From contig JAPYRN010000003.1 in NCBI GenBank assembly GCA_029941565.1, forward strand, positions 107,358-171,357: a DNA stretch of 64,000 nucleotides. The letters are read 5' to 3'. Below the pieces are notes generated by a model. The model was not told the origin of the DNA, did no database searches, and worked only from the letters and a program-made list of their open reading frames with translations. This DNA comes from Candidatus Latescibacterota bacterium. GTDB taxonomy: Bacteria; Latescibacterota; UBA2968; UBA8231. Positions within the stretch are counted from its first letter, which is position 1. The number at the start of each line of letters is the position of its first letter. Positions 3,140 to 63,853 of this stretch are shown piece after piece. The position numbers and the translations under genes are program-made.

Positions 3140-3828
3140 CTTCCAGAGCGGGCCATCACCCGGCACTGGCCATCGTCGAGACCGACGACGACGATGTCGG
3201 TGAGGCCGACGAAGAGGCCGTTTTCGACAACACCGGGGATCTCGTCGATCGTGCGATCCAGTGATCCGGCATCACCGATGCCATTGGGGAAGTGGCAATC
3301 GAGGATAAAGTTGCCATTGTCGGTGACAAATCGCTCACCGTCATCACCAAGGCGTAACTCGGCGCGCTGGCAGAGGTCCAGCAGGCGCAGTTTGGCCAGT
3401 CCCCAGGCGAAGGGTATTACCTCCACTGGAAGAGGGGCCCGAGTACCGAGGCGATCGACGAGTTTTCCTGGATCGACGATGATGATCTCGAGGCTACTCG
3501 CGGCGGCGACGATCTTCTCCCGCAGCAGTGCACCGCCGAGCCCTTTGATCAGTTCGAGATCGGGATCGACTTCGTCGGCGCCGTCAATCGTCAGATCGAT
3601 GGCGGGATTGTCCTCCAGAGTTTGGATGTCGAGGCCCAATTGTTCACCCAATGCGGCGGAGGACTCGGAGGTCGGCACGCAGCGAATCTCAAGACCTTCT
3701 TCCTGCACGCGGTCCCCAAGGGCACGAATAGCGAATTCTGCCGTGGAACCGGTACCCAGCCCCACCACCATGCCGTCCTGGATATATTCCACCGCCCTGC
3801 GGGCAGCCAATTCCTTGTGATCAGACAT
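3133..3828 (-). CDS. rpiA: Ribose-5-phosphate isomerase A
   Basis: 231 aa with MSDHKELAARRAVEYIQDGMVVGLGTGSTAEF and DGADEVD motifs. Confidence 0.9.
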   Translation of the reverse strand: MSDHKELAARRAVEYIQDGMVVGLGTGSTAEFAIRALGDRVQEEGLEIRCVPTSESSAALGEQLGLDIQTLEDNPAIDLTIDGADEVDPDLELIKGLGGALLREKIVAAASSLEIIIVDPGKLVDRLGTRAPLPVEVIPFAWGLAKLRLLDLCQRAELRLGDDGERFVTDNGNFILDCHFPNGIGDAGSLDRTIDEIPGVVENGLFVGLTDIVVVGLDDGQCRVMARSGSQ

Positions 3829-5809: not shown

Positions 5810-6442
5810 TTACTCCTGTGGCAGGGCGTCAGAGCGACAACAGCGAAAGCCGATGAGGTCGAGGCTGTACGTCGCTGTCAGATATCGACCGTAGCGGCCA
5901 TCAGAGCGAGCGAAATTCACGCTTTGAAACCACGACCCACCACGCACAACACGCCAACCTGCAGCCTCGTTATACCAGCCGTCAGTCCACTCCCATACAT
6001 TGCCGATCATGTCGTGTACACCGGCGGGTGTGTGGCAGTCTTCAAAGGTCCCACTGGGCACGGCGCCGCCATCGCGAACCCAATCCTGCCCATCTGACCA
6101 GGGTGTATTACAGCGGCGCGGTTCGAACTCCGAGCCATACCCATAGTCGAGGTTGTCCGGACCCCGCGACGCCTGTTCCCACTCGGCCTCTGTGCACAAT
6201 CGCTGCTCGCGGTCAGCACAAAGTTGCCGGGCCTCCTCCCAGGTGACGTCGGTCAGGGGTAGCTGGCCAGAGATGTTGGGATATTCGAATCGATCGATCC
6301 AGAACTCACCGATACGGATCTGATCGACATTTCCCGTGCCGGTCTCGGCCGATCTTCCCGGCACGGGTCCCAGCAGTGCGGTCAGGGCAAGCATCGGTAC
6401 CCAACCCGAGACTGTCCTGACGCCTGGTGAGGGTCCGATCAT
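5810..6442 (-). CDS. Secreted FGE-sulfatase (SUMF1/GldJ/PorK-type) domain protein
   Basis: 210 aa with a signal peptide and formylglycine-generating-enzyme fold motifs (RGGSWF, NVWEWT, YRCC-like). Its start overlaps the stop of the upstream CBM9-like gene (ATGA). Confidence 0.75.
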   Translation of the reverse strand: MIGPSPGVRTVSGWVPMLALTALLGPVPGRSAETGTGNVDQIRIGEFWIDRFEYPNISGQLPLTDVTWEEARQLCADREQRLCTEAEWEQASRGPDNLDYGYGSEFEPRRCNTPWSDGQDWVRDGGAVPSGTFEDCHTPAGVHDMIGNVWEWTDGWYNEAAGWRVVRGGSWFQSVNFARSDGRYGRYLTATYSLDLIGFRCCRSDALPQE

Positions 6443-7395
6443 GGGGCAAACTCGATGATGCCAAAGCGCTCTGGATGGTGGAAACCGCGTTGGAAGGTAG
6501 GACTCCAGGCAGTGTATTCGGTTGCCGCGCTGTTGTGCTCGAACAGAGGTTTCGCCTCCTCCTGTATCAACGCCAGCTCCGCCTCCAAACGGCGCCGATT
6601 CTCCGAGTCATCCTCGTCGAGGGCGGCAAGCTGCTCCCGCAGAGGGCGCACTCGCTCCATGAAAGCGCGCAACGATGCACCCACCCCGGCGCCAGCGCCG
6701 CGTTCGATTCGATAGAGATTGAGCCGCCAGCGATCGCCGACGGATGGACGCCCACCGCCGGTGATCGTCGGGGCAAAGGCGTTCCAGGGGATGGCCATCT
6801 CTACGGACCAGCCCGTGTCGACATCCGTGCTGTCGTTGACCGTGCCGTGGACGCCGACGGCGGTTTGCAGGCCGGCGATGTCCCAGTCTTTGTCAGAGAC
6901 CCACTCCGGACTCACGGAGCCGATATGCAGATCGACGATGGCATTCAGCGGATTCACCTCGACCTCGAGGTAGTCTCGGCCATCGCCATCGGGGTCGATG
7001 AAGGCCTCCACGACCTCCTCCGACCACATGGGGTCGTCCTCCTCTGTGTATAGGGCCCACATGTCCGTATCCCGGCAGGCGAAGGCGATGTAGAGCGCCT
7101 CTTCACCCCAAACGATCTTGGCGCGAGTCGCTTGCTGTACGTGTCCGTAGTCGTTGAGAATCCGTGTCAGGCCGTCGATCTGGGGCGCTGCCGCCCAGGC
7201 GAACTCGTCCAGTCGACCATCGATGGTGATCGGCGAGTCGGTCTGGCGGACCAGATAGTGGGGCAGGGTGCTCTCAGAAAATGGCTGGAGTGAGCTGACG
7301 GCGGACTCCGCCGCGTGCGTCGAGGTACTGAGTCCTGCCGCCAGAACACAACTGCAGCCCAACGTGATTAAAGCGTGACTCGCGATCCTTGACAT
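6439..7395 (-). CDS. Secreted CBM9-like (DOMON-type carbohydrate-binding family 9) domain protein
   Basis: Track ORF 6439..7551(-). Likely start ATG 7395-7393 (MSRIASHALITLGCSCVLAAGL signal peptide) with GGGAGA about 8 nt upstream. Motifs DGRLDEFAWAAAP...ALYIAFACRDTDMW...EAFIDPDGDGRDYLEVEVNPLN. Confidence 0.6.
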   Translation of the reverse strand: MSRIASHALITLGCSCVLAAGLSTSTHAAESAVSSLQPFSESTLPHYLVRQTDSPITIDGRLDEFAWAAAPQIDGLTRILNDYGHVQQATRAKIVWGEEALYIAFACRDTDMWALYTEEDDPMWSEEVVEAFIDPDGDGRDYLEVEVNPLNAIVDLHIGSVSPEWVSDKDWDIAGLQTAVGVHGTVNDSTDVDTGWSVEMAIPWNAFAPTITGGGRPSVGDRWRLNLYRIERGAGAGVGASLRAFMERVRPLREQLAALDEDDSENRRRLEAELALIQEEAKPLFEHNSAATEYTAWSPTFQRGFHHPERFGIIEFAP

Positions 7396-7807
7396 GGGCT
7401 GTCTCCCTTCGGGCGTACTCGCAGCACAGCGTGGGCGAGCACATTCATGAGCAGGTATCCCGGCGTGGGGACCGCCGAGAGGTGATGCCGCAAAAACTCG
7501 CCTCCCACTACGCCGGAGGCAACCACTTTCACATCGGTTTGCCGAATCCACTGATATCAGGCGGAAGGGGCGCCCACCACATTGGAAAGACTTTCCTCAG
7601 AATCCTCTGAACGCCGTTCTGTCGTACTTCATACAACTTACATATATACAATGATTTAAGATGTTTATTACGAGTGATGGGAGGGTGGCACACCCCTTGC
7701 TCAAAAGACCACATGGATCCGTATGCACACGCAGGCTTTTGCGTCGTCCTGGCAACGTCACAACGGGATCGACAATGATCGAAGGCATCTTCATTTCCGC
7801 TTGAGGC

Positions 7808-8259
7808 ATGTTACCAAAATCCACACGCCACGAAGCGATTGCCAACAACCTGGCCAACATCGAAGTGCCCGGTTTCAAGCGGGATGCCATGTTTCTGCGC
7901 GAAGTCCAGGAAGCGATTCCGGTGACTACCCGGACTGGCGGATCAACCGCTTCGATGGTATGTGGACGGACTTTGAGCAGGGCAAGCTCAGACGCACGGG
8001 GGGTATGTTCGGTGTAGCCATCTCCGGAAAAGGGTTCTTCGCCGTGCAGACACCGGACGGAGTCCAGTACACCCGCATTGGAACATTCGCCCGCAGCAAC
8101 CAGGGGGTCCTCGTCAATATGCTGGGCCAACCTGTGCTCGACGTGGGGCGAGCCTATCGATGTACCACCTTCTCGCAGCCTTTGATCGACGCCAATGGTA
8201 TCATCGAGGGTCGCGATGAACTGCTCGGTATCGATAAGGTTCTCGGCGTCGTCCGATGA
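7808..8259 (+). pseudogene. flgF: Flagellar rod protein remnant (FlgF/FlgB-like), frameshifted near 7920 and C-terminally truncated
   Basis: Frame 2 (7808-) reads MLPKSTRHEAIANNLANIEVPGFKRDAMFLREVQ, the rod-protein N-terminal motif. Frame 1 (to 8259) reads DFEQGKLRRTGGMFGVAISGKGFFAVQTPDGVQYTRIGTF, the FlgF/G core. The two frames do not join, and the total length is about 150 aa versus about 250 aa expected. Confidence 0.55.
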
Positions 8260-8299
8260 CGATGCCACACTTTGTGTCAGCATTGGAGAGGGAGTAATA

Positions 8300-9109
8300 G
8301 ATGAGCAGGGCCCTGTACACCGCTGCGACGGGCATGATCGCCCAACAGATGAACGTGGACAACATCGCCAACAACCTGGCGAATGTGACACGACAGGACA
8401 AAAAAAAGAAAGCTTGAGTTCCAGGATCTTCTTTATCAGCAACTGCGCCTCGCCGGGGCGACACAGAACGAGGGTGCGCAGGTGCCAGTAGAACTACAGA
8501 TAGGTTATGGCACACGCTCGGTGGCGACGCAGAGAATCTTTTCTCAAGGGACGGTGATCTCGACCCGGGCCTCGGTGCCGGTGCGCATTAAGGATATGGC
8601 TCGTCTGCAACTGGGTGAGGAGATACAGCTCACAGGCATGGGACTGATCATCGGCCAGGAGGGCACAGGGGACGGACGTCAGGCGAGTTTTACGCTGCGC
8701 ATGTTGGCCAACATGATGAAGCGCATGCAACTGGCGGTGGATCCAACCCAGATCCGGGTGCGCAATGTCGCCGCCGTGAGCACGACGGCGACGTTGTCTC
8801 CCTATCACCGTAAGGGGAGCCGCATAGATGTGCAGGTAGCCTCTCTCGGTGATGCCGAAACCCTCCAGAGGGCACGTTGTTGTGCACGCCACTTCTCGAC
8901 CAGATGGCCAGGTGTATGTGCAGGTGCAGGGCCCGGTGAGTGTTGGTGGCTTCAGCCTGGGTGGTGGTGATGCCGGTTCAGTGCTGAAGAACCACACCGT
9001 CGTAGGCAACATCCCGAATGGTGGTCTGGTAACGGCGGAAATAGAGCGTTTGCAGGACATGGACGGCCATATCGAACTCCTGCTCTTTGAGGGCAAGGGC
9101 ACAGTCTGA
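8300..9109 (+). pseudogene. flgG: Chimeric flgG 5' end fused by deletion to flgI internal region; multiple frameshifts
   Basis: [30 protein letters not shown] (FlgG N-terminus) then a frame break inside the A8 run at about 8395-8402. This is followed by FQDLLYQQLRLAGATQNEGAQVPVELQIGYGTRSVATQRIFSQG (FlgG), which runs directly into VRIKDMARLQLGEEIQLTGMGLIIGQEGTGDGRQASF...SRIDVQVASLGDAETL (FlgI). Two more frame changes at about 8865-8900 lead to RPDGQVYVQVQGPVSVGGF...GNIPNGGLV (FlgI). The flgG 3' part, flgH and the flgI 5' part are absent. Confidence 0.6.
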
Positions 9110-9393
9110 TCCGTGCCCAGGATATCATCCTCGAGTTGATGTATGCCCTGGATCAACAGTTGTTAGATGACGGCAATGAGTTGGCACTGAATCTGCAGCG
9201 ACTCTATCTGTACTGTTATCGCCGACTCGTACGCGCCAATACACGCCTTGATCGTGCAGCGATCGAAGAGGTGATCGAGTTGTTCAATAATCTCCTCGAG
9301 GCATGGGGAAAAGTGGCCGCCCAGAGCCCTGAAGGCCCACCTGTGCGAGATCGACCCTCGGTGGTCCTTCATCGATCTTCGGGACCAGAGTGA
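9106..9393 (+). pseudogene. fliS: fliS (flagellin-specific chaperone) 3' fragment, 5'-truncated at the junction with the flgI remnant
   Basis: LIRAQDIILELMYALDQQLLDDGNELALNLQRLYLYCYRRLVRANTRLDRAAIEEVIELFNNLLEAWGKV matches the C-terminal two-thirds of FliS. No N-terminal region or start codon is found. Confidence 0.5.
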
Positions 9394-9661
9394 ACGAGCT
9401 GCCCACCAGTTGCTCGACGACACCCGGCAGCAGTTACGTCAGGTCGGAAAAGGCCGCAGAGCATCCCGCGGCTATCACCGCCAGCCGTTCTCTCAAGAAG
9501 CCCGGTTCGTTGACAACGTGCGTTAAACGCTCAGCACCAGCTACCCTCTCCTCGTTCCACCCCGTGTGGCCCGCTCCGTACTCTGTCACAGGCGGATGTC
9601 ACCCCGATTGGGTGATTGTCCGATCCTGACGCCGGATCCTGACGCCGATGGTATATTGGGC

Positions 9662-9688
9662 TAAAGTTTCCAGGCGAAACGCCGATAT
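9662..9688 (+). promoter_or_regulatory. Sigma-28 (FliA) class promoter: TAAAGTTT-N11-GCCGATAT
   Basis: TAAAGTTT at 9662-9669 and GCCGATAT at 9681-9688, matching the FliA consensus TAAA-N15-GCCGATAA with exact spacing. It lies about 75 nt upstream of the flgM start. Confidence 0.6.
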
Positions 9689-9762
9689 ATACTGATAGAG
9701 CAGTAAAGCGATCGCGCCCGCAATCGCGGTTTGCGTCGCAACTCAGAGCGAAGGAACGCATC

Positions 9763-10335
9763 ATGCGCATCGACGGGGTACCTAACCTTCAGAAGGTTTC
9801 CCAGCCCAATCAGCGCACCGATTCCGCTTGTCCCCGCAACAAAGTGGGGCGAGGTGACGATTCCGTCGAAATCTCCAGTCCTTCAAAGGACGCGGCAGGG
9901 CTGACGGAAGCGCTGAAGGCGGCACCGGAGACAACGAACCCGCGGATTGGCGAAATTCGCGAGCGGGTCCAGTCCGGGTATTACAATTCCGAGGATATTC
10001 GTCGTGAGATTGCCGGCGCCATGCCCGATGCCGAAGGGATCAAGCCCGTCGTCAACGAAGTTGCCGAGGTCCGTGCCGCGCATCGTCAACTCGCCGAAGT
10101 GCCAGATGTGCGCCAGGACCGAGTAGCGGCATCACGGCAGCGCGCCGCGAAGGGTTCTATGATCAACCCGACGTACGCACGCAGACGGCGCAGTCCATCA
10201 TCGACGAGTCTGCGTAAGAAAGATTGTCAACGATCTGGTCAGCCGACCATTTTAGGGCGGCGGATGATAACTTTGAGGGATCGACCTTTTGGTCGGTCCC
10301 TTTTTTCTTTGAGACTCGTTTTCTCTGGGCGCTAA
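9763..10335 (+). CDS. flgM: Anti-sigma-28 factor FlgM homologue with an atypical ~90-aa C-terminal extension
   Basis: The first ~95 aa end in the FlgM C-terminal sigma-28-binding pattern (IGEIRERVQSGYYNSEDIRREIAGAM). The ORF continues to 10335 through a rho-independent terminator at 10277-10310. Confidence 0.6.
   Translation: MRIDGVPNLQKVSQPNQRTDSACPRNKVGRGDDSVEISSPSKDAAGLTEALKAAPETTNPRIGEIRERVQSGYYNSEDIRREIAGAMPDAEGIKPVVNEVAEVRAAHRQLAEVPDVRQDRVAASRQRAAKGSMINPTYARRRRSPSSTSLRKKDCQRSGQPTILGRRMITLRDRPFGRSLFSLRLVFSGR
10277..10310 (+). terminator. Rho-independent terminator: 10-bp stem, 4-nt loop, T-tract
   Basis: GGGATCGACC tttt GGTCGGTCCC forms a 10-bp stem with one G-U pair, followed by TTTTTTCTTT. 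Confidence 0.7.
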
Positions 10336-10336
10336 T

Positions 10337-11281
10337 GTGAGCGAGCAGTCGTTTGTCGGTGTCGATGCGGGGGGGACACGAACCCGGTTGGTCCTCGCTG
10401 ATCATCAGGGTGGTCTTCACGCTAGCGTGGAAGGTGGCCCGGGCGATTATCAGCGCCTCGGAGCGGCGGGAGTCGGTGCTCTTATCACAGAGTTGCTGCA
10501 GCGCCTGCAGCCGGAATTGGTTCCTACCGTGCTCTGCGCTGGGGTCGCCGGTGCGGGACGCGCTCCGGAGCAGCAGGCTTTGTGTGGGGAGCTGGAGAGC
10601 CGGCAGGTGGCTGCACAGATACTCGTGGTCAGCGATGCCCGAGCGGCACTCGAGGGAGCTCACGGTGGGATGGCGGGCCTCGTGTGCATAGCGGGAACGG
10701 GTTCTATGGTATTGGGCCGCAATGCGGCCGGCGAAGAGGCCCGCGCCGGTGGTTGGGGACCCGTATTGGGGGATCAGGGAAGCGCCTATGCGCTGGTCCT
10801 TGAGGGTGTGCGTCGGGCGTTACAGGCTGAGGACGGCAGCGGCGAGGCCACGAGCCTGCAGCGGGATTTGCTCGAGGCGCTGGAGCTTGCCAATTGGACC
10901 GATATCGTCGCCGCTGTCTACGGATCAGGACTCAGCCGTGCCCGTCTCGCCGAGGCCTGTCCCGCCATTTTCGCTGCCGCCCGTAGAGGCGACAGAGTTG
11001 CTGCTGATATCATCGACGCTGCCGCGTATGCTCTTGGAGCCCAGGTCGGCGCTGTCGCTCGCCGTCTGCGACTGACGGCGCCTGTGGCGGTCGCATGTAC
11101 CGGTGGTGTCTTCGCCGAAATCGAGATTCTGCGAGGACCGCTGACCAGGGGTGCCGGTGGCGTGGCTCTCGCACTCCGGCCACCAAGGCTCCCGGGGTGT
11201 CTGGGAGCACTCTTGCTCGCCATGGGCGAGGGCACCGTCAACGTGCCGGAATCCGTCATCTCCAACTGGATCATGCCTTGA
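10337..11281 (+). CDS. BadF/BadG/BcrA/BcrD-type ATPase (N-acetylglucosamine kinase-like)
   Basis: GTG start. The N-terminal FVGVDAGGTRTRLVL phosphate-1 motif and IAGTGS match the ASKHA sugar-kinase fold. Confidence 0.7.
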   Translation: MSEQSFVGVDAGGTRTRLVLADHQGGLHASVEGGPGDYQRLGAAGVGALITELLQRLQPELVPTVLCAGVAGAGRAPEQQALCGELESRQVAAQILVVSDARAALEGAHGGMAGLVCIAGTGSMVLGRNAAGEEARAGGWGPVLGDQGSAYALVLEGVRRALQAEDGSGEATSLQRDLLEALELANWTDIVAAVYGSGLSRARLAEACPAIFAAARRGDRVAADIIDAAAYALGAQVGAVARRLRLTAPVAVACTGGVFAEIEILRGPLTRGAGGVALALRPPRLPGCLGALLLAMGEGTVNVPESVISNWIMP

Positions 11282-12473: not shown

Positions 12474-13115
12474 GTGGCTAAAAGAGTGGAAAAGATGAGT
12501 ATCGAAGATGACGAGAAGGGGGTGGACGTCGAGGGTGAGATCGACGAGTCCGTAGCCGAATCGGCCGAGACAGAGTCGCCCGAGGCCGTAGAAATACCCG
12601 AGATCGACAAGGTCAGGGCGGAGGCCGTGGAGAATCGTGACCGATACCTCCGCGCGGTAGCTGAACTCGACAACTTCCGCAAACGAACCGTAAAGATGCG
12701 GGCCGAAACCCGGGATGACACACTGCGGGATGTGTTACTGCAGATCGGCCCCATGCTCGATAACTTCCGCAGAGCACTGGGTCAGGAGACCGAGGATGTC
12801 CCCTCCTTTCGGCAGGGCATCGAGATTATTTTCAAGCAATTCAACGACATCCTCTCAGGTTATGGTCTTATCGAGATTCAGGCCGATGGCCAGCCCTTTG
12901 ATCCGAATCTGCACGAGGCCCTGGCTCAGGTGCCAAGCGCCGAGCATCCACCGGGCACGGTGATGCAGGAGATGGAAAAAGGGTACATGCTCAACGATCG
13001 TGTCGTTCGTCCAGCACGTGTCGTTGTCAGTACGGCGATGGAGGACGAGGGCAACAACGATGGCGATCAGCAAGCCGATGATCAGCAAGCTGACATTAAT
13101 GATGGAAAGGCGTAG
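12474..13115 (+). CDS. grpE: Nucleotide exchange factor GrpE
   Basis: An acidic N-terminus then the GrpE core ([19 protein letters not shown]...[10 protein letters not shown]). An alternative start Met lies at 12495. Confidence 0.9.
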
Positions 13116-13126
13116 GTAGAAGGAAG

Positions 13127-15076
13127 ATGGGCAAGGTCATAGGAATCGATTTGGGCACGACGAATTCGTGCGTGGCGGTGATGGAGGGTGGCGAACCGGA
13201 GGTGATCTCCAACTCGGAGGGTGGTCGAACGACACCATCGATGGTCGGTTTCGCCAAGGATGGCGAACGACTGGTCGGTCAGACGGCGAAGCGCCAGGCC
13301 GTCACCAATCCGACGAACACGGTGTTCAGCATCAAGCGCTTTATGGGGCGCCGTTTCGACGAGGTGCCTCAGGAACTCAAGGAAGTCCCATACACCGTCC
13401 AGATAGGCGGACGGGATCTGGCGGTGGCCGAGATCGATGGCAAGGAGTACTCGCCACCTGAGATTTCGGCGATGGTGTTGCAGAAGATGAAAGCCACGGC
13501 GGAGGACTATCTGGGCGAAGAGGTGACCCAGGCGGTGATCACCGTGCCGGCCTATTTCAATGACTCCCAGCGTCAGGCAACAAAAGATGCGGGCCAGATC
13601 GCCGGTCTTGAGGTTTTACGCATCGTCAACGAACCGACGGCGGCGGCGCTGGCCTACGGCTTGGACAAGAAGGACACAACGGAAAAAATCGCGGTTTACG
13701 ATCTGGGTGGTGGCACATTCGATATCAGCATACTTGAGTTGGGCGACGGCGTCTTCGAGGTGAAATCAACCAATGGGGACACACACCTAGGCGGAGATGA
13801 TTTCGATCAGCGGGTGATCGACTGGATTGCAGCTGAGTTTCAGACTGCGGAAGGCATCGATCTGCGGCAGGATGCCATGGCTCTGCAGCGCCTGAAAGAA
13901 GCGGCTGAAAAGGCCAAGTGTGAGCTATCAGGCTCCGGCACCACAGAGATCAACCTGCCATTCATCACCGCAGATCAGACCGGCCCCAAGCACGTGCAGA
14001 TGAGTCTGAGTCGGTCAAAGTTCGAGCAATTGGTCGAGGACCTGGTGGAACGCACCAAAGGGCCGTGTCAGCAAGCGCTGAAGGATGCGGGTCTGCCGGC
14101 ATCCGAGATCAACGAGGTCATTCTCGTGGGTGGGTCGACCCGCATGCCAAAGGTCCAGGAGGCGGTGCAGACTGTGTTTGGTCGCGAACCGCACCGTGGC
14201 GTCAACCCTGATGAAGTCGTTGCCCTGGGGGCGGCGATCCAGGCGGGGGTGTTGGCCGGCGATGTCGATGATGTGCTGCTGCTCGATGTGACACCCTTGT
14301 CTTTCGGCATCGAGACGATGGGGGGTGTGATGACGAAGCTCATCGAACGCAACACGACAATCCCAACGAAGAAGAGCCAGATCTTTTCCACCGCCGCCGA
14401 CAACCAGCCGAGTGTTGAAGTACACGTGTTGCAGGGGGATCGCGAATTTGCCAACGACAACCGCACCCTCGGCCGATTTCATTTGGACGGGATTCCGTCG
14501 GCACCCCGTGGCATGCCGCAGATCGAAGTTTCCTTCGACATCGACGCCAACGGCATTCTGAATGTGTCGGCAAAGGACAAGGGCACAAACAAAGAGCAGT
14601 CGATCCGCATCGAGGCTTCCAGCGGACTGTCGTCGGAAGAGATTGAACAGATGCAGAAGGATGCCGAGGCCAACGCCGAAGCGGATAAAACGCGTCGACA
14701 AGCAGTGGACAAGCGGAACGAGGCCGATCAATTGGTTTACGCCACAGAAAAGTCCCTGGCCGAACATGGGGACAAGCTGTCAGAGGAGGATCGTAAGCCG
14801 GTGGAGGCCGCCCTCGAAGAGACGAAGAAAGCTTTGGAGGGAGAGGATGTCGATGCCATCGCCGCAGCGGTGACGCAACTGCATGAGTCCTCCCACAAAC
14901 TCGCTGAAGCAGTCTATGCCGATGTCGAGCAACAAGCGGCCGAGCAAGGTGCCCCGGAGGCAGGTGGACAACCGGATTCGGCGGCCGATGACGACGGTGT
15001 CGTAGATGCCGACTTCGAGGTCGTTGAGGACACCGGTGAGAACGCCAATGGCGACTCGAAGGACGAGAAGAAGTAG
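13127..15076 (+). CDS. dnaK: Molecular chaperone DnaK (Hsp70)
   Basis: 649 aa with [21 protein letters not shown] and other canonical Hsp70 motifs. Confidence 0.97.
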
Positions 15077-15094
15077 AAGATACGGATCGACAGA

Positions 15095-16240
15095 ATGGAA
15101 AAACGTGACTATTACGAGGTGCTCGGTCTACAGCAAGGGGCGGACTCGGCAGCGATCAAAAGCTCCTACCGCAAGCTGGCGCTAAAATATCACCCTGACC
15201 GAAATCCGGACGACGCGGCGGCGGAAGCAAAGTTCAAAGAGGCTTCCGAGGCGTACGAGGTCCTCAGCGACGACGACAAGCGTGCCAAGTATGACCGATT
15301 CGGTCATGCTGGGGTGGAGAACAACTTCGGTCAGGGGGGCTTCCAGTGGTCGGATTTCTCTCATGCAACCGATTTCGAGGATATTTTCGGTGACGTCTTT
15401 GGCAATCTCTTCAGTGGTGGTGGCCGTGGTCGGTCACGCGGTCCCTCTGGGCCACCGAAAGGACGGGACCTTCGCATCACTCTTGAGTTGAGTCTTGAGG
15501 AGGTCGCACAGGGCGTCGAAAAGAAGATCAATCTGAACAGGCAGCAGCGCTGCAAGGTCTGCGATGGCGCCGGTGCCGCCCCCGGTGCGCAGACCGAGCC
15601 CTGTGGTACCTGCAATGGCATCGGTCAGGTGCAACAGGTATCGAGATCATTCTTTGGTCAGTCCGTCACCGTCACCGCCTGTCCGACTTGTTCTGGAGAA
15701 GGCAAGATCATCTCCGATCCATGTCGGGAATGTTCCGGCGAGGGGCGGGTTCGCGAGACGGCGTCGATCACGGTGCGTATCCCGGCAGGCGTCAGTACGG
15801 GGAACTATATCCCCCTGCGTGGCCAGGGGGACGTGGGGTCACGAGGCGGTCTCGCCGGTGATTGTCTGGTCTTTATCGAGGAACTGGAGCACGACCAATT
15901 CACCCGTGAAGGCAACGACATCCTGCTGCGACTGCCCGTAACGATCAGCCAGGCGGCTCTGGGAGACGACGTGGAGGTACAGACCCTGCACGGAGTGGTC
16001 AAGATGAAGATCCCCGAGGGTACCCAGGCTGGTCGCGTCTTTCGCCTGCGTGGCAAGGGGGTGCCAGACGTCGATGGTCGCGGTCATGGTGATGAACTCG
16101 TAGAGGTGATCATCTGGACGCCGACCGACCTCAACTCTGAGGAGCGACAGTTGCTTGAACGGCTCGACGAAATCCAGCAACAGCGGGCAGCAAATGAAGG
16201 CAAGGGCTTTCTCGATCGAATGCTGGAAGCGCTGAGCTGA
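15095..16240 (+). CDS. dnaJ: Molecular chaperone DnaJ
   Basis: J-domain (KYHPDRN), G/F region and four CxxCxGxG zinc-finger repeats. Confidence 0.95.
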
Positions 16241-28090: not shown

Positions 28091-28109
28091 TGGTCGGCCC
28101 TTTATAGGC

Positions 28110-28480
28110 CGCGTGCTCAGCATTGCCTCCACTGCTGCGTCCCGAATCGTCGATTCCCATGCTGTAACTCCCTCGATCGCGCGTTCCGTGAAGTCTAGAG
28201 TGTACTCCAGTCGGTTCATTGTGGCGCCGACGGTGCCGCGTTCACCAGCGACCCGGTTGATGGCCTCGTCGATCTTGGCCAGCGCTTGTCGCGAGCCGTC
28301 CCGCGTATTGACGGAGATGGTACTGAGATTGAGATGGTCATGTCCTCGAGGTCGTACTCCAGGCGATCGGCGGCGATGGCGTCACTGCCAAGCTGGAAGC
28401 TGCCTCCGATACCTTCATTGATGATCAGGGTGGTCCCATTCAGATCCCCGATCGTCCCATCACCAGAGATCTTCAGTTTT
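28110..28480 (-). pseudogene. Flagellin 3' fragment (variable region plus conserved C-terminal helix), 5'-truncated and frameshifted
   Basis: Reverse strand reads ...RQALAKIDEAINRVAGERGTVGATMNRLEYTLDFTERAIEGVTAWESTIRDAAVEAML, the flagellin C-terminal D1/D0 signature. A separate upstream frame carries variable-domain-like sequence. Confidence 0.5.
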
Positions 28481-28524: not shown

Positions 28525-28551
28525 TAAAGTTGCGGTCAGATGGTTCCGATA
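28525..28551 (+). promoter_or_regulatory. Sigma-28-like promoter: TAAAGTTG-N-CCGATAG (spacing +1 relative to consensus)
   Basis: TAAAGTT at 28525-28531 and CCGATAG at 28546-28552, about 140 nt upstream of the flagellin start. Preceded by an unusual AT-rich T7/A8 segment at 28472-28510. Confidence 0.45.
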
Positions 28552-28690
28552 GACGGAACAGGAGGCGAGGGCTCGAGTCGCTTCACCTGGTTCTGGAGGG
28601 GATCGGGAGGGGTGAATAGGCGGGTTCCCGGCGGTCGGCGGGAGGGTTCTCTGGAGGGGGACCCTATCTGAGGAGCAAGGAGGCAATAAC

Positions 28691-29339
28691 GTGCCAATCA
28701 GAGTGAACCGCAGCATTTAGGCGATCAACGCGCAGCGCTCGATCTCGTGCAACGTAACGAGAGCCAATCGTCAGTTGGAGCGTCTGTCATCCGGTCTACG
28801 GGTGAATCGCGCCATGGACGATGCCTCTGGTCTCGTCGTCTCCGAAGGATTGCGGAGTGAGGCGGCGAAACTCAACCAGAACGTGCGCAATGCGCAACAG
28901 GGCTCGGTCCTGCTGCAGGTGGCCGGGTCATTGCAGGTGGTTAACAACATGTTCGTGCGCATGCGCTGAACTGGCGCTCCAGGCTACCGGGGTGGGCATC
29001 CCGGATCTTCGAGCCAGCGGAGCCGCCCTCAATCTGGGCCAGTTGTCGGTTTCAAGTATCGATGACGCGCGCTCCGCCATCGCTGGTATCGACCAGGCAA
29101 TCATCACTGTTTCGGCGGCGCGCGGTGATCTTGGCGCGGTGCAGAACCGGTTGGGTTTCTCCATTGGCTTTACCGAGGTGGAAATCGAGAATACCACCGC
29201 TTCCGACGCGACGATCCGCGATGCGGATATGGTTCTAGAAGTTACCGAGTTTACCCGTGCACAGCTGCTCCTGCAGACGAGTAACGCCATGCTGGTGCAG
29301 GCAAATGTGACATCCATCGGGGCGTTGTCCCTGCTCTAA
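28691..29339 (+). pseudogene. fliC: Flagellin (short FliC type, D0/D1 only) inactivated by TAG at codon 10 and a +1 frameshift
   Basis: AAGGAGG RBS 8 nt before GTG 28691. It reads VPIRVNRSI then TAG (28718-28720), then AINAQRSISCNVTRANRQLERLSSGLRVNRAMDDASG...VVNNMFVRMR, then a stop caused by an extra T at about 28957. Frame 0 then continues ELALQATG...GDLGAVQNRLGFSIGFTEVEIENTTASDATIRDADMVLEVTEFTRAQLLLQTSNAMLVQANVTSIGALSLL (flagellin C-terminus). Confidence 0.7.
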
Positions 29340-37899: not shown

Positions 37900-37975
37900 T
37901 GGTGGAGCAGATCGGGATCGAACCGACGACCTCAGCGTTGCAAACGCCGCGCTCTCCCAACTGAGCTACTGCCCC
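37900..37975 (-). tRNA. tRNA-Ala (anticodon UGC), CCA-encoded
   Basis: Reverse complement GGGGCAGTAGCTCAGTTGGGAGAGCGCGGCGTTTGCAACGCTGAGGTCGTCGGTTCGATCCCGATCTGCTCCACCA. G3:U70 alanine identity pair and TGC anticodon in a 7-nt loop. The downstream hairpin CGGCGCC-13-GGCGCCG (37871-37897) followed by a T-rich run on the minus strand looks like its terminator. Confidence 0.92.
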
Positions 37976-50589: not shown

Positions 50590-51428
50590 TTCGTTGCACG
50601 TCTCAGGTCAACAAAGCTTCGATGACAATGTCGTGCAGTTTGGGTCGCAGCTGCTGAAAGCCTCGGTCCCCTCTGTCCGGGTGCACACGATTGGTGAGCA
50701 GGATCACGTAAAGATCCAGCTTCGGGTCGATCCATAGTGACGTGCCAGTAAACCCGGTGTGGCCATACGCTGCGATGGAGAAACGACTGCCGGAGGGTCC
50801 GTCCGCGCCGGGTTTCTCCCAACCAAAAGCACGATTTGAGTCTGCAGGGGATCGTCGATAGGAGCGTACAACTCACCGGCACGGATCCCATCGAGGCGAT
50901 CACCTCCCAGATGCTCTAGCAGATCGCCGATGAGGATAGGGCTGATGTCGCTATACACCGTCTGTTGACCCGACGCACCTGACAATGGCGCTTGCAGGAA
51001 TCGCTGCATGGCGGCGCGCCGCCATGCGTTGCTCCACTCGAGTCCGGTGCCGTATCCCGTCGCAGGCGAAGCCCGGATGTCAGTCCTGCGGCGCGGCACA
51101 TGAGCAGCCGCACGGTGAGGGCCCGCTTGTTTTCAGGGTAGTAGTCCGGCAACAGGTCGCCGATGGGGGCATCGACATCGAGCTGACCTGACGTCGCCCA
51201 TTTCATGGCCAACCAGGTTGTGGCCAGGACCTTGGTAAGTGACGCCAGGTCATACAGCGTCGTCGACGTCAGGGGCCGTACCGTCGGTGTGATCTGCGCT
51301 TGACCGATCGGAATTTCGTGTCGCCCGCCAGCGCTACGAGCAGCGATCAGCGTGGCACCTGCCAAAATGCCATCGTCAACGGCATTGCGCAGCGCCGCAT
51401 CGACGTGTAAGAAAGGGTAGGAATTCAC
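50590..51428 (-). pseudogene. Beta-lactamase-family serine hydrolase (class C/esterase-like) split across three frames
   Basis: Frame 1 reads TLYDLASLTKVLATT (S-x-x-K) ...LTVRLLMCRAAGLTSG. Frame 2 reads YGTGLEWSN...YSDISPILIGDLLEHLGGDRL. Frame 3 reads GSRFSIAAYGHTGFTGTSLWIDPKLDLYVILLTNRVHPDRGD...KLHDIVIEALL. Confidence 0.55.
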
Positions 51429-59604: not shown

Positions 59605-61088
59605 CCTTGACCCGTGCTCTTGGAGCTCCCGTCGAAATGAACCTGCGAACACTTCTCGCCGCGTACCAACCCTTGTCGGTGTCCGGTCCCCTGGACCGAC
59701 GCATCGACGGCATCGTAACCGACTCACGGCAGGTGCAGTGCCGGTCCTTGTTCGTCGCGATCCGTGGGGGCCAGGAACAGGATCGTCACGCTTTTATCGG
59801 TGACGCTGTTGCACGGGGTGCGGAGGCGGTGATCGTCGAAGATGACGGCATCGATACCGGCGCGGCGACACGAATCGTTGTCGGCGACAGCCGTCATGCT
59901 CTGGCTGCTCTGGCGGCACGACTGCATGGTGATCCATCGGCGAAGATGATGTGTGTCGGTGTTACCGGCACCAATGGGAAGTCGACAACGGCGAGCATTC
60001 TGCACCGGATTCTCACCGCGGATGGGTCAGCCGGCGCCTATCTGGGCACTCTGGGGTTCCAATTCTGCGAGCATAAAGAGCCAGTGGCGAACACGACGCC
60101 CGAAGCCGGTCAACTGCAGGCCCTTCTCGCCAGAGCTCGTGATGCTGGTTGTCGATCGTTGGCGATGGAGGTGTCCTCTCATGGTCTGGCTCTTGGTCGT
60201 GTTCTGGGTATCGATTTTGCGGCGGCTGTGTATACCAATCTGACGCGGGACCACCTCGACTTTCACGGATCTGAAGAGCAGTACTTTGCCGCTAAGAGTC
60301 TGTTGTTCACGCAACTATCGGACGCCGCTGTGGCCGTGTTGAACGCTGACGATTCAAGGTCACCCGCCCTTGCTCGCCTGACACCGGCGCGGGTATGGTA
60401 CTATGGTGAGAAGGGTGCGCACGTGCGCTTGCTGGGGGCTCGATTCGAGTCCGATTTTACCTGCGTGGAGATGGACACGCCAGAGGGCAAATTCGAGGTC
60501 GAAATGGCATTGACGGGGCGTTTTAATTGCTCTAATGTAGTGGCCGCCGTAACGACAGGTTTCGCATTGGGAATCGAGGCAGATGTGATTCGTCGTGGTG
60601 TGGCGGCGGTGACGCAGGTGCCTGGACGTTTCGAGCGTATCGATGAGGGTCAGTCGTTTCAGGTCATCGTCGACTATGCTCACACACCAGCCGGTCTCGA
60701 GACCGTATTGTGTGCCGCGCGGGAGTTGACGTCACGACGACTTGTCTGCGTTTTTGGCTGTGGTGGTGATCGGGATACGGGCAAGCGCCCCATGATGGGG
60801 CGTGTCGCCGAGACGCTGGCGGATCGGATCTACCTCACTTCGGATAATCCGAGGAGTGAGTCTCCCCGACAGATCATCGACCAGATCTCCGCCGGGATGC
60901 TGGGGGCAGAGGAGGTCATCGTCGAACCGGATCGGAGTGTGGCGATCCATGCCGCCCTCGAAGCGGCCGAAGCGGGTGATGTCGTCGTGCTTGCCGGCAA
61001 GGGGGATGAGCCGTATCAGATCCTTGATGCTGGGCAAGTGGTGCCTTTCGACGATCGTGACGTAGCAAGACAGGCTTTGCGTCACTAG
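59601..61088 (+). CDS. murE: UDP-MurNAc-L-Ala-D-Glu:meso-diaminopimelate ligase
   Basis: GVTGTNGKSTT...DNPR motif (meso-DAP type). Confidence 0.92.
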   Translation: MTLTRALGAPVEMNLRTLLAAYQPLSVSGPLDRRIDGIVTDSRQVQCRSLFVAIRGGQEQDRHAFIGDAVARGAEAVIVEDDGIDTGAATRIVVGDSRHALAALAARLHGDPSAKMMCVGVTGTNGKSTTASILHRILTADGSAGAYLGTLGFQFCEHKEPVANTTPEAGQLQALLARARDAGCRSLAMEVSSHGLALGRVLGIDFAAAVYTNLTRDHLDFHGSEEQYFAAKSLLFTQLSDAAVAVLNADDSRSPALARLTPARVWYYGEKGAHVRLLGARFESDFTCVEMDTPEGKFEVEMALTGRFNCSNVVAAVTTGFALGIEADVIRRGVAAVTQVPGRFERIDEGQSFQVIVDYAHTPAGLETVLCAARELTSRRLVCVFGCGGDRDTGKRPMMGRVAETLADRIYLTSDNPRSESPRQIIDQISAGMLGAEEVIVEPDRSVAIHAALEAAEAGDVVVLAGKGDEPYQILDAGQVVPFDDRDVARQALRH

Positions 61089-62482
61089 TGTCTGAGCTGG
61101 GCGGTTCAGGGTGGCGGGACATTCGCCTCGAGGACGTGAGAAGTTGGGCTCGTGCCGACTGGATCGGCTCGAATGCAACGCGAATGGAGCCGGCTAGCGG
61201 GGTTTCGACCGACACACGATCCCTGGAGCCGGGGCAGATATTCGTTGCCCTGCGGGGCGACAGATTTGACGGGCACGCACATCTGGCCGCAGCATTTGAG
61301 ACGGGTGCCAGCGCCGCAGTCGTGGAGCGCACAGGTGAAGTGACCCAGCGCACATACAGCGGTCCGTTGCTGGCAGTAGATTCGCCGCTGGCTGCGTTGG
61401 GCCGGCTGGCGCGACAGTATCGCAGGCGCTACGACATACCCGTCGTAGCTGTGGCGGGCTCGGCAGGAAAGACGACGGCGAAAGAGATGATCGCCGCCGT
61501 GCTCGGTCGCAGATACCAGGTTCTGGCGACACCGAGCAACGAAAACAATGAGATTGGCGTACCCCGGGCGATCCTGGGGCTGACGCCCGAACATGGGGCA
61601 GCCGTCATCGAGATGGGGGCCCGGCGGGTAGGTGATATCGCCTACCTCTGCAGCATCGCACAACCAACGATTGGTGTGCTGCTCAACATCGGCGTCGCAC
61701 ATCTGGAGGTATTTGAATCTGTAGAGAGAGTGGCCAAGGCCAAAGGGGAGCTCCTGGACTTTATCGTAGATGAGTCTTACGTGGCTCTCGTCAACGCGGA
61801 CGACTGTGTCATTGCCGGGGAGGCTATGAGGACAAAGGGGAGACTCCTCGGCTTCGGTTGGACGCGTGAGGGCCATTTCAGTGGGGAGGGACTCATCCTC
61901 GACCAGGAGGGCTGCGGCCACTTCTCTCTACAGAATACCTCCTTCCATCTCCGGGTTCCCGGGCGACACAACGCCCACAGCGCTCTGGCGGCGATTGCGG
62001 TTGCTGATCAGTGTGGTGTCAGCTCCGCAGACGCATCGGCGGCGCTGGCCGATTTCGAGCCTGTCTGCATGCGCTCTGAAATCTTGCGCAAAGCGGGAAT
62101 CCGTGTTATCAATGATTGCTACAATGCCAACCCCGATTCTGTTCGTGCTGCCCTCGACCTGATGGCTGAAATGTCGGTGGATGGTCGGCGCATCGCCGTG
62201 CTCGGCGATATGCTCGAATTGGGGGCACAGGAAGGTGCGCTGCACCAGGATGTAGGACGATATGCAGCGGACCGTATCGATCTGTTGATGGGCACCGGAC
62301 CCCTGAGTGCTCAGATCGTCGGCGGTGCCCGCGAGGCTGGCATGAAAGCTGGACTGGCCAAGCACTTCGAAGACCGCGACTCCCTGACGCGGCAGTTGAA
62401 GTCCACGGTCCGGCCTGGTGATTTGGTACTGGTTAAGGCATCTCGCGCCATGGCGTTGGAGCACGTGGTCGAGGCGTTATAG
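61088..62482 (+). CDS. murF: UDP-MurNAc-tripeptide:D-Ala-D-Ala ligase
   Basis: VAGSAGKTTAKEM... Mur-ligase three-domain layout. The start overlaps the murE stop. Confidence 0.9.
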   Translation: MSELGGSGWRDIRLEDVRSWARADWIGSNATRMEPASGVSTDTRSLEPGQIFVALRGDRFDGHAHLAAAFETGASAAVVERTGEVTQRTYSGPLLAVDSPLAALGRLARQYRRRYDIPVVAVAGSAGKTTAKEMIAAVLGRRYQVLATPSNENNEIGVPRAILGLTPEHGAAVIEMGARRVGDIAYLCSIAQPTIGVLLNIGVAHLEVFESVERVAKAKGELLDFIVDESYVALVNADDCVIAGEAMRTKGRLLGFGWTREGHFSGEGLILDQEGCGHFSLQNTSFHLRVPGRHNAHSALAAIAVADQCGVSSADASAALADFEPVCMRSEILRKAGIRVINDCYNANPDSVRAALDLMAEMSVDGRRIAVLGDMLELGAQEGALHQDVGRYAADRIDLLMGTGPLSAQIVGGAREAGMKAGLAKHFEDRDSLTRQLKSTVRPGDLVLVKASRAMALEHVVEAL

Positions 62483-62647
62483 CGCAGTTCGAAAAAGTAC
62501 CGCCTCCCCGGGCGGTTGCAGCAACGTCCCGCCCCCCCCGGCGAGACGAGAAACCCCTCGTTCGACCTCCTCCTACGGGTTGCTGGCGCCGCGTTTTTTT
62601 ATGGTTTGCCGCGATCACCCCTTTGCGTACCCGCCGGAAAATCAGGC

Positions 62648-63853
62648 ATGTCCAGCGTCGCGGACCGGGCTGCACGTCAGGTTCTGTTCATAACCGCCAT
62701 CCTCGTGGGGATCGGCGTCGTCATGGTATACAGCTCGAGTTCCGCCCTGGCGGGGACGCGCTTTGAGGATTCAGGCTTTTTCCTCCAGCGACAGATACTA
62801 CGGGCCGGCTTCGGATTGATGATCATGTTCGCACTCTCGCGAGTGCCACTGCGATTCTGGCGTTCGCTGGCACGACCGCTGCTATTGTGCGGCGTCGCCC
62901 TGCTCGTGCTCGTGCTCATTTTCGGTGAAGGGCGCAGCGCCCAACGGTGGCTGCCTTTTCACCTGCCGGCAATGACGACGCTCACATTTCAACCTTCCGA
63001 ATTCGTCAAGTTGGTCCTCGTGTTGTATCTGGCCGATGTATTGTCGCGCAAGGAAGGGGAGATGGCAGACTGGAAGAGTGGTCTGGTGCCGCGCCTCGTC
63101 ATCGTCGGTTTGGTTCTCGTCCTCATCGTCATGCAGCCCGATTTGGGCACCTCCCTGGCGATCGGCTCGGTGTCGCTCGTGATGCTCTGGCTCGGCGGCG
63201 CCGGGACCGTACACCTGGCCGGAGCTTGCGGCTTCGGTGCAGTCGTGGCGCTGCTCTCGGTGCTGTGTTCACCGTACCAGATGCTGCGTCTACTCACCTT
63301 TATGGGCGAACCGGATCCCCAGGGGGCCGGATTTCAGGTGTCACAGGCGCTCATCGCTCTCGGCAGTGGCGGACTCTTCGGTGTCGGCCTCGGCAACAGC
63401 ATGCAGAAGCACTTCCTGCCCGAACCGCACACCGATTTTGTCTTCGCCTTCGCAGGGGAGGAACTGGGCTTGTTCGGCACACTCAGTGTCATCGCTCTGT
63501 TCATCGCCCTCGGTGTGCACGGGTATCGCATCGCCACGCAAGCGGCGACGTATCACGGATTTCTGCTGGCCTCTGGGATTACGGTCATGGTTGGCACATA
63601 CGCCTTGCTGAATGTCGGTGTCGCCACAGGGCTGATGCCGACGACGGGGTTGCCTTTGCCATTCATCAGCTATGGAGGGTCCTCCCTTCTTTGGAATCTG
63701 AGTGGCATCGGTATTCTGGCGGCCGTTGCCCGCGACAACGGTGCCGAACCTGCACGTGCTTCGGCGCTGGCCTCGGGTCAGCGGCATGCCAGTGGTTCCC
63801 ACGGTGGCACCAGCGGCTGGATGCCGCCCAGCGCCCCGACGGCGAATCGATGA
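62648..63853 (+). CDS. ftsW: SEDS-family peptidoglycan glycosyltransferase FtsW
   Basis: Track ORF 62516..63853. Start ATG 62648 (MSSVADRAARQVLFITAILVG). QPSEFVK, PDLGT, HTDFVFA, PFISYGGSS. Confidence 0.88.
   Translation: MSSVADRAARQVLFITAILVGIGVVMVYSSSSALAGTRFEDSGFFLQRQILRAGFGLMIMFALSRVPLRFWRSLARPLLLCGVALLVLVLIFGEGRSAQRWLPFHLPAMTTLTFQPSEFVKLVLVLYLADVLSRKEGEMADWKSGLVPRLVIVGLVLVLIVMQPDLGTSLAIGSVSLVMLWLGGAGTVHLAGACGFGAVVALLSVLCSPYQMLRLLTFMGEPDPQGAGFQVSQALIALGSGGLFGVGLGNSMQKHFLPEPHTDFVFAFAGEELGLFGTLSVIALFIALGVHGYRIATQAATYHGFLLASGITVMVGTYALLNVGVATGLMPTTGLPLPFISYGGSSLLWNLSGIGILAAVARDNGAEPARASALASGQRHASGSHGGTSGWMPPSAPTANR

Follow-up and report, generated by a model that had tools for sequence, protein, structure and literature searches.

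Flagellar gene remnants between a CBM9-domain gene and badF

We analysed a 64,000-nucleotide stretch of DNA from a Candidatus Latescibacterota bacterium (assembly GCA_029941565.1, contig JAPYRN010000003.1, positions 107,358 to 171,357 of the forward strand; hereafter the window), in which remnants of flagellar genes fill positions 7775-10217 on the plus strand. Three-frame translation revealed the order flgF, flgG, flgI, fliS, a flgN-like gene and flgM; none of the six is intact, and ~2.4 kb of fragments is left. The relic is bordered on the left by a CBM9-domain gene (6439-7395, minus strand) and on the right by a gene for a badF-like ATPase (10337-11281, plus strand), and a scan of the window for open reading frames (ORFs) found no long credible one between the two. 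A sequence-only reading of this region had described signatures of flagellar rod and ring proteins and of the FliS chaperone with no complete gene among them, a description that three-frame translation, Pfam and tblastn bore out. It had also called neighbouring housekeeping genes such as dnaK and rpiA intact, which they are, as are the other flanking genes (GT4, FGE-sulfatase, CBM9, badF-like, hrcA, grpE and dnaJ). The flgN-like remnant, flgM and a sigma-28 promoter match lie within the region which that reading covered and had gone unnamed.

Similarity to flagellar proteins, on which the sequence-only reading depended, is significant, with Pfam E-values from 8e-6 to 1e-30 for flgF, flgG, flgI, fliS and flgM. 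The main matched segments share ~53-92% amino-acid identity with intact orthologues (tblastn), the flgG and flgI remnants lying at 70-92%; at the nucleotide level these two are ~80% identical to the genes on two relatives' contigs, L087 and L094. Searches with intact orthologues from relatives (tblastn) found no trace of flgA or flgH in the window, and no insertion-sequence element is visible at the relic locus. An Rfam search of the whole window returned a single tRNA (37903-37975) and no structured RNA in the relic. Two minus-strand ORFs (7597-8442, 281 amino acids (aa), and 8494-9156, 220 aa) had no Pfam match and were read as chance antisense frames in DNA of 60% G+C.

The rod genes flgF and flgG

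The flgF pseudogene (proximal rod protein; 7775-8259, plus strand) was delimited by Pfam, tblastn and base-level alignment to flgF of the relative L086. It opens with an ATG at 7775 and covers residues 1-163 of the 263-aa L086 FlgF (tblastn), its N-terminus matching Flg_bb_rod (E 8e-6) and its middle matching LlgE_F_G_D1 (E 1e-11) in a second frame. An in-frame TGA stop occupies 7802-7804 in the window, where sister strains read TCA (Ser); the loss of 10 nt at 7917/7918 changes the frame, and two more small gaps lie at ~8152 and ~8167. The gene ends near codon 163 of 263, with ~300 nt of its 3′ end, corresponding to the Flg_bbr_C domain, missing. The sequence-only reading was right about two frames for flgF and overstated the loss, which it put at the C-terminal half and which amounts to ~38%.

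The flgG pseudogene (distal rod protein; 8301-8565, plus strand; Pfam, blastn and tblastn) retains codons 1 to ~89 of 262. Its start at 8301 is preceded by a good ribosome-binding site, GGAGAGGGAG, its N-terminus matches Flg_bb_rod (E 8e-6), and the remnant is 80.5% identical to nucleotides 1-267 of L087 flgG (blastn). In the window the frame is broken by the loss of one nucleotide at 8387 and two at 8399, next to an A8 run (8400-8407) in place of the A7 expected from intact genes. The invariant motif NVNTTG(Y/F)KK is destroyed there; intact genes read AAGAAGAGC at this place, as compared among the window, the same-species contigs L001, L084 and L093, and five intact relatives. Neither flgF nor flgG carries Flg_bb_rod, D1 and Flg_bbr_C domains in one frame, and the C-terminal domain, present in the intact relatives, is absent from both.

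Deletion junctions in flgI, fliS and the flgN-like gene

At 8565-8569 (plus strand), flgG codon ~89 is joined to flgI codon ~22. Window positions 8301-8565 correspond to 974-1240 of L087 and 8569-9024 to 3242-3699, and L094 agrees; by the size of the interval in these two relatives, the deletion removed ~2.0 kb, comprising the 3′ two-thirds of flgG, flgA, flgH and the flgI signal peptide. The flgI pseudogene that follows (P-ring protein; 8566-9088, plus strand; Pfam and tblastn) spans codons ~22-197 of ~365. Its matches to PF02119 cover positions 1-96 (E 1e-30) and 100-169 (E 3e-10) of 343 in three frames, and tblastn with L087 and L086 FlgI as queries places it at residues ~23-201. A first frame change falls at a G5 run near 8867 (G6 in contig L093 and in protein P0007 keeps the frame), and a second near 8897, through a 1-nt loss at 8896 that the window shares with L001. 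The remnant does not combine a signal peptide with a full PF02119 domain; the intact FlgI of L094 begins MFRICIIAFLTCCTVAEA.

A second junction, at ~9085-9089, joins flgI codon ~197 to fliS codon 51. In the same-species contig L083 the two remnants form a single chimeric ORF of 202 aa (P0022), which reads HIELLLFEGKGNSLIRAQDII across the junction (...HIELLL|(F)EGKGN...); the corresponding intact sequences are ...HIELLLHQADW... in FlgI and DMEGKGNALIRAQDII in FliS. This deletion probably took the 3′ half of flgI, flgJ, flgN, flgK, flgL, flaG, fliD and the 5′ third of fliS, perhaps more, for a total of >8 kb, a content pieced together from the gene orders of relatives L096 and L007, since no single intact contig covers both halves.

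The fliS pseudogene (flagellin chaperone; 9089-9360, plus strand), fused directly to the flgI remnant, keeps codons 51 to ~140 of 149. It matches PF02561 positions 45-114 of 115 (E 1e-17) and residues 52-140 of the 149-aa L007 FliS (tblastn), does not unite a complete PF02561 domain with a start codon, and has lost one nucleotide at 9100 in the window and L001. A further deletion, near 9345-9362, joins the end of fliS to codon ~80 of a flgN-like gene, whose remnant (~9362-9526, plus strand; tblastn) comprises roughly the last 50-55 of 138 codons with their own TAA. It aligns with residues 90-138 of the L007 FlgN-like protein (E 1e-6, tblastn), to which Pfam FlgN itself matches weakly, and a homologous frame in L005 is much closer. 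Taken over these genes, the sequence-only reading had the architecture right: flgG running after a frame break into flgI, with flgG 3′, flgH and flgI 5′ deleted (flgA being lost as well), two frame changes in flgI within ~60 nt, and a fliS lacking its 5′ third.

flgM with its promoter and terminator

The flgM gene (anti-sigma-28 factor; 9763-10217, plus strand; Pfam FlgM, E 7e-13) is full length and frameshifted. Aligned to the intact 151-aa flgM of L005, it shows a 1-nt deletion at ~10149, near codon 130, which puts the last 21 codons out of frame, so that the ORF runs on to 10335; tblastn with L007 FlgM likewise splits into two frames. The FlgM domain is present, and the C-terminal segment of 21 residues conserved in L005-L008 is not in the same frame.

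Some 75 nt upstream of flgM lies a match to a sigma-28 (FliA) type promoter, TAAAGTTT-N11-GCCGATA(T) (9662-9687, plus strand); read in extended form it is TAAAGTTT-N11-GCCGATAT, 9662-9688, the searched pattern ending at 9687. This pattern is matched exactly once in the window, against 0 expected from shuffles. The same element precedes the intact flgM in L005-L008 and fliC in L007 and L008. Within the species, the match is exact in the window, L001, L084 and L093, the -10 is mutated to GCCGTTAT in L083, and L098 has no match. A terminator scan placed a rho-independent terminator at 10275-10310 on the plus strand. Conservation of the promoter in the group suggests that the flagellate relatives use a standard FliA-dependent hierarchy for late genes.

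Shared and private lesions among same-species assemblies

We compared the relic with same-species contigs L001 (GCA_029935935.1, contig JAPOGP010000272.1), L083 (ENA ERZ27286455), L084 (ENA ERZ838136), L093 (CEWR01137714), L098 and L107 (JGI Ga0310124, Ga0310125) and the contig encoding P0007, drawn from assemblies with ENA, JGI and NCBI/Logan record names; L001 and L002 (GCA_029936015.1) both encode the window's DnaK. The window and L001 come from separate assemblies, are 99.96-99.97% identical and have all lesions in common, the sole difference being A7 versus A8. In the other contigs the flanking proteins are 98-99.7% identical, at 98-99% nucleotide identity. At least seven other same-species assemblies share all the large junctions together with the 10-nt deletion in flgF and the frameshift in flgM, wherever their contigs span them.

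Upon these common lesions, the strains differ by one nonsense codon and ~15 indel events, ~13 of them inside the remnants. The codon at 7802 is TGA in the window and L001 and TCA in the others. The window and L001 alone share the losses at 8387 (-1) and 8399 (-2) and the single-nucleotide deletions at 8896, 9100 and 9699, while L001 has A7 instead of A8 at 8400. L107 has lost one nucleotide at 7934, L084 carries a 24-bp deletion at 8303, and L083, L098 and L107 share a 217-bp deletion (8349-8565). L093 and P0007 have G6 instead of G5 at 8867 with the frame kept; L093 also has a 12-bp deletion at 8904 and shares a 1-nt loss at 9286 with L083 and L098. In L098, 327 bp of flgM are deleted at 9818, between two 10-nt repeats, CAGCGC(A/G)CCG.

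The indels inside the remnants include lengths of 1, 2, 24, 217 and 327 nt, and 8- and 23-nt indels occur in non-coding spacers. Across ~8.4 kb of flanking coding sequence from the same contigs no indel shifts the frame; within nine flanking genes the only indels are of 3 and 15 nt. Nonsynonymous and synonymous changes between strains stand at 15:7 in the remnants, a ratio resting on only 22 substitutions, versus 16:30 in the nine flanking genes (Fisher p = 0.018), indicating relaxed constraint.

Two further observations concern these contigs. The 217-bp deletion haplotype stops no more than 3 nt from the older junction of flgG and flgI at 8565/8566 (...CGACC|CGGGCC...); no clear microhomology accounts for this, and the GC-rich CCCGGG palindrome may be a deletion hot spot. 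In L001, positions 6546-6645 (window ~9772-9826) are a 100-N scaffold gap inside flgM accompanied by a duplicated 55-bp overlap, a scaffolding artefact absent from the window's assembly.

Intact, eroded and excised states in relatives

Relatives collected by an HrcA scan (one genome per species) are all metagenome-assembled and labelled Gemmatimonadota or Latescibacterota, and a protein 99% identical to a remnant ORF is labelled 'Candidatus Latescibacteria bacterium'. L086 carries FGE-sulfatase and CBM9 genes followed by flgF (263 aa), flgG, flgA, flgH and flgI, with the left flank as in the window, and L087, L094, L095, L096 and L097 have intact flgF to flgL genes. L007 and L008 carry two fliC genes, flaG, fliD, fliS (149 aa), a flgN-like gene (138 aa), flgM (151 aa), badF and hrcA, with the right flank as in the window. 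These intact loci resemble the window in gene order, in FGE and CBM9 genes on the left and badF-hrcA on the right, and in the sigma-28 promoter before flgM; they differ in having full-length flgF, flgG, flgA, flgH, flgI, flgJ, flgN, flgK, flgL, fliC, flaG, fliD, fliS and flgM. Because both flanks are syntenic with intact relatives, the relic represents the ancestral flagellar locus.

The opposite extreme is found in L004 (OZ252098.1, a complete chromosome with 68% HrcA identity), where rpiA-GNAT-FGE-CBM9 adjoins hrcA-grpE. Within L004 8045-11014 the flagellar locus and badF are absent, and a ~400-bp unrelated spacer holds no detectable remnant; L004 shows the end state of this loss. The heat-shock genes of this flank also vary: the window has hrcA-grpE-dnaK-dnaJ (12495-16240), and in L004 and L008 dnaJ comes immediately after grpE, and dnaK is missing from between them.

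Several candidates were set aside. L085 was considered as a second decaying lineage and rejected; there the FGE and CBM9 genes of the flank are in pieces too, and sequencing indels are likelier in this polished long-read contig. Short truncated FlgI proteins on tiny contigs (P0001, P0006 and P0010-P0013; P0001 ends FlgI-like) are in most cases probably cut by contig ends and were not counted. Separately, P0002 and P0011, ~85-87% identical to the flgI remnant and encoded on contigs of <1 kb from a related lineage, hold the N-terminal half of FlgI with an intact signal peptide, running into a short-chain dehydrogenase C-terminus (P0002) or unrelated sequence (P0011); they may reflect independent decay or chimeric short contigs. 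A sponge-symbiont origin, suggested by the occurrence of Latescibacterota in sponges, found no support and was dropped; literature searches by accession turned up nothing, and the sponge papers found in our literature search held nothing on flagella in Latescibacterota.

Flagellin remnants and other genes of the window

Two further flagellar pseudogenes lie elsewhere in the window, both between a GT2 glycosyltransferase gene and queA. The first, a flagellin (fliC) pseudogene at 28691-29339 on the plus strand (tblastn to L007 FliC, frame analysis and Pfam), has an in-frame stop at about codon 10; it matches Flagellin_N positions 1-84 and then meets a stop, it has lost its centre, and Flagellin_C follows at 28992-29336 in a different frame. 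By eye, a degenerate sigma-28-like element can be made out upstream, at ~28526-28553. The second (28100-28479, minus strand), divergent from the first, is a C-terminal part in two frames, corresponding to residues 220-364 of L007 FliC (tblastn) and Flagellin_C positions 1-49 of 86 (Pfam). Flagellin fragments recur at the same position in five other contigs: three have split Flagellin_N/Flagellin_C gene calls, the fourth has a Flagellin_C call only, and on the fifth the 76-aa gene upstream abuts the end of the contig.

The other large ORFs of the window read as intact (hrcA-grpE-dnaK-dnaJ, ribosomal proteins, queA, ispDF, thiolase and cell-wall synthesis genes), with one further pseudogene, of a beta-lactamase-family serine hydrolase (50610-51428, minus strand), split over three frames. 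Its 170-aa N-terminal ORF matches PF00144 positions 2-110 of 329, and its C-terminus (YGHTGFTG...) lies in another frame; other assemblies fragment it otherwise, with gene calls of 170, 240 or 101 aa, so that it looks like a polymorphic non-flagellar pseudogene. Because this gene is also split, decay strikes motility genes hardest but not exclusively. No other flagellar or chemotaxis genes were found among the remaining large window ORFs; a lone 'FlgD_ig' match is the C-terminal Ig-like domain of a secreted metalloprotease/beta-propeller protein and was rejected. Near the end of the window (61088-63853), an FtsW-family gene (62516-63853) comes straight after a second Mur ligase gene (61088-62482), which is probably murF; no mraY or murD lies between the two, an unusual order for a cell-wall cluster.

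Discussion

Together, these results indicate that the locus is very probably a non-functional relic of a flagellar locus that formerly lay between the CBM9 gene and badF-hrcA, as judged from its sequence. The sequence-only proposal of a motility locus in reductive decay is supported by homology, disruption, synteny, lesions that recur across assemblies, and relaxed constraint. Because both flagellin genes elsewhere in the window are broken as well, the organism is most likely non-flagellate, and we infer that the cell has lost motility and that the remnants are not expressed.

Decay of this kind would have begun with the loss of selection for motility in the species, after which deletions were presumably fixed. 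There are at least four such deletions (the flgF 3′ end; flgG codon ~89 to flgI codon ~22; flgI codon ~197 to fliS codon 51; the end of fliS to flgN-like codon ~80), and the 10-nt flgF deletion and the 1-nt flgM deletion would likewise have gone to fixation. Freed of constraint, the remaining 2.4 kb goes on gaining strain-specific lesions, and the sequences show the routes: slippage in homopolymer runs (A7/A8, G5/G6), loss of the DNA between short direct repeats (L098), small indels and nonsense substitution. We read the process as neutral decay after selection was lost, under the usual bacterial deletion bias.

Might the breaks instead be sequencing or assembly artefacts, such as homopolymer miscalls and chimeric joins, in genes that are really intact? 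Some lesions do fall in homopolymers (A8 at 8400, A7 in L001; the G5 run at 8867), L001 has its scaffold gap and duplicated overlap inside flgM, and the related long-read contig L085 is full of indels even in flanking genes. Yet each contig of the species that crosses the large junctions has them in identical form, and there are at least seven such contigs, with names from ENA, JGI and NCBI records; flgA and flgH sequence is wholly absent; no frameshift touches the flanking coding sequence of the same contigs; and the rest of the window consists of uninterrupted genes, save for the flagellin and beta-lactamase-like pseudogenes. Because shared and private lesions are nested, frameshifts are confined to the relic and spacers, and constraint is relaxed, we regard the lesions as real, and an artefactual origin as extremely improbable. 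The variable run lengths (A7/A8, G5/G6) could also be taken for phase-variation or programmed-frameshift sites that switch flagellar genes; however, restoring either frame yields only chimeras without flgA, flgH, two-thirds of flgG and half of flgI. With deletions of 2 kb and more fixed, there is nothing functional to switch on, and this idea is effectively refuted.

Partial function, in which flgM would still act on a retained FliA regulon as its anti-sigma factor, or one of the chimeric ORFs (FlgG-FlgI or FlgI-FliS) would have been co-opted, can appeal to the exact sigma-28 pattern in four contigs, to 130 of 151 flgM codons in frame with a terminator behind them, and to chimeric ORFs that some strains keep in frame (P0007, the 202-aa P0022 and one of 222 aa in L001). 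Against it, no strain whose contig reaches that far has the last 21 residues of FlgM in frame, all three between-strain substitutions in flgM are nonsynonymous, and the gene has lost 327 bp and its promoter match in L098, with a mutated -10 in L083; the chimeric ORFs are broken differently in each strain and lack the signal peptide and C-terminal domains that their families need. We judge partial function very improbable. As for flgM by itself, there is a slim chance that its remnant is still transcribed and modulates a FliA retained for non-flagellar genes, which would make it a regulatory module outliving its organelle; the shared frameshift, the all-nonsynonymous changes and the L098 deletion speak against residual activity.

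A few points nevertheless weigh against regarding the locus as a dead relic in a non-motile cell. Our search for flagellar genes covered the window, and an intact second flagellar set elsewhere in the genome is possible. The evidence for the lesions comes from assembled contigs; all sequences compared are metagenome assemblies, in which each contig is a population consensus; and the substitution ratio in the remnants draws on a small sample. The retention in most strains of 130 flgM codons, a promoter match and a terminator may mean that this gene was inactivated last or that some activity is left.

Interpreted as a relic, the locus indicates that an uncultured lineage recently gave up flagellar motility. 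It also provides a three-stage series at one orthologous position: the locus is intact in L086, L094-L097, L007 and L008, is eroded and varies between strains in the present species, and has been cleanly excised in L004. From this series the indel spectrum of neutral DNA and its bias towards deletion could be estimated for an environmental population. There is a practical side as well, in that the fragments have been deposited as proteins, among them 'FlgI' fragments, the FlgG(1-89)-FlgI chimera P0007 (a 'hypothetical protein') and the FlgI-FliS chimera P0022, and can mislead automated motility calls in metagenome-assembled genomes. P0007, P0022, P0008 and P0009 are all pseudogene fragments or chimeras in public protein collections, some with FlgI Pfam labels.

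As a biological event it is of a well-known kind, here met anew in an uncultured lineage, and it does not change what is understood of flagella or of genome decay. Buchnera keeps a partial flagellar system, in which basal-body genes are intact and expressed and the filament has been lost. The window resembles it in its missing or damaged filament genes (fliC) and in keeping only part of the flagellar gene set; unlike in Buchnera, its rod and P-ring genes are truncated, frameshifted and fused, and no partial apparatus could be made from the locus. The closer parallel is the decay of flagellar genes in recently non-motile or host-restricted bacteria such as Shigella, Yersinia pestis, Burkholderia mallei and Sodalis. 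A literature search for such cases also listed papers on luminous symbionts of anglerfish (PMC6020299), Wigglesworthia (PMC3280448) and Serratia symbiotica (PMC8275996). Our case differs from this pattern of decay in concerning an uncultured bacterium known from metagenomes only, with no visible insertion sequence and no established host association, and in being documented across metagenome assemblies rather than isolates. In other respects the picture is the same: flagellar operons fill up with frameshifts, premature stops and deletions beside intact housekeeping neighbours, the lesions differ from strain to strain, and deletion bias gradually removes the locus.

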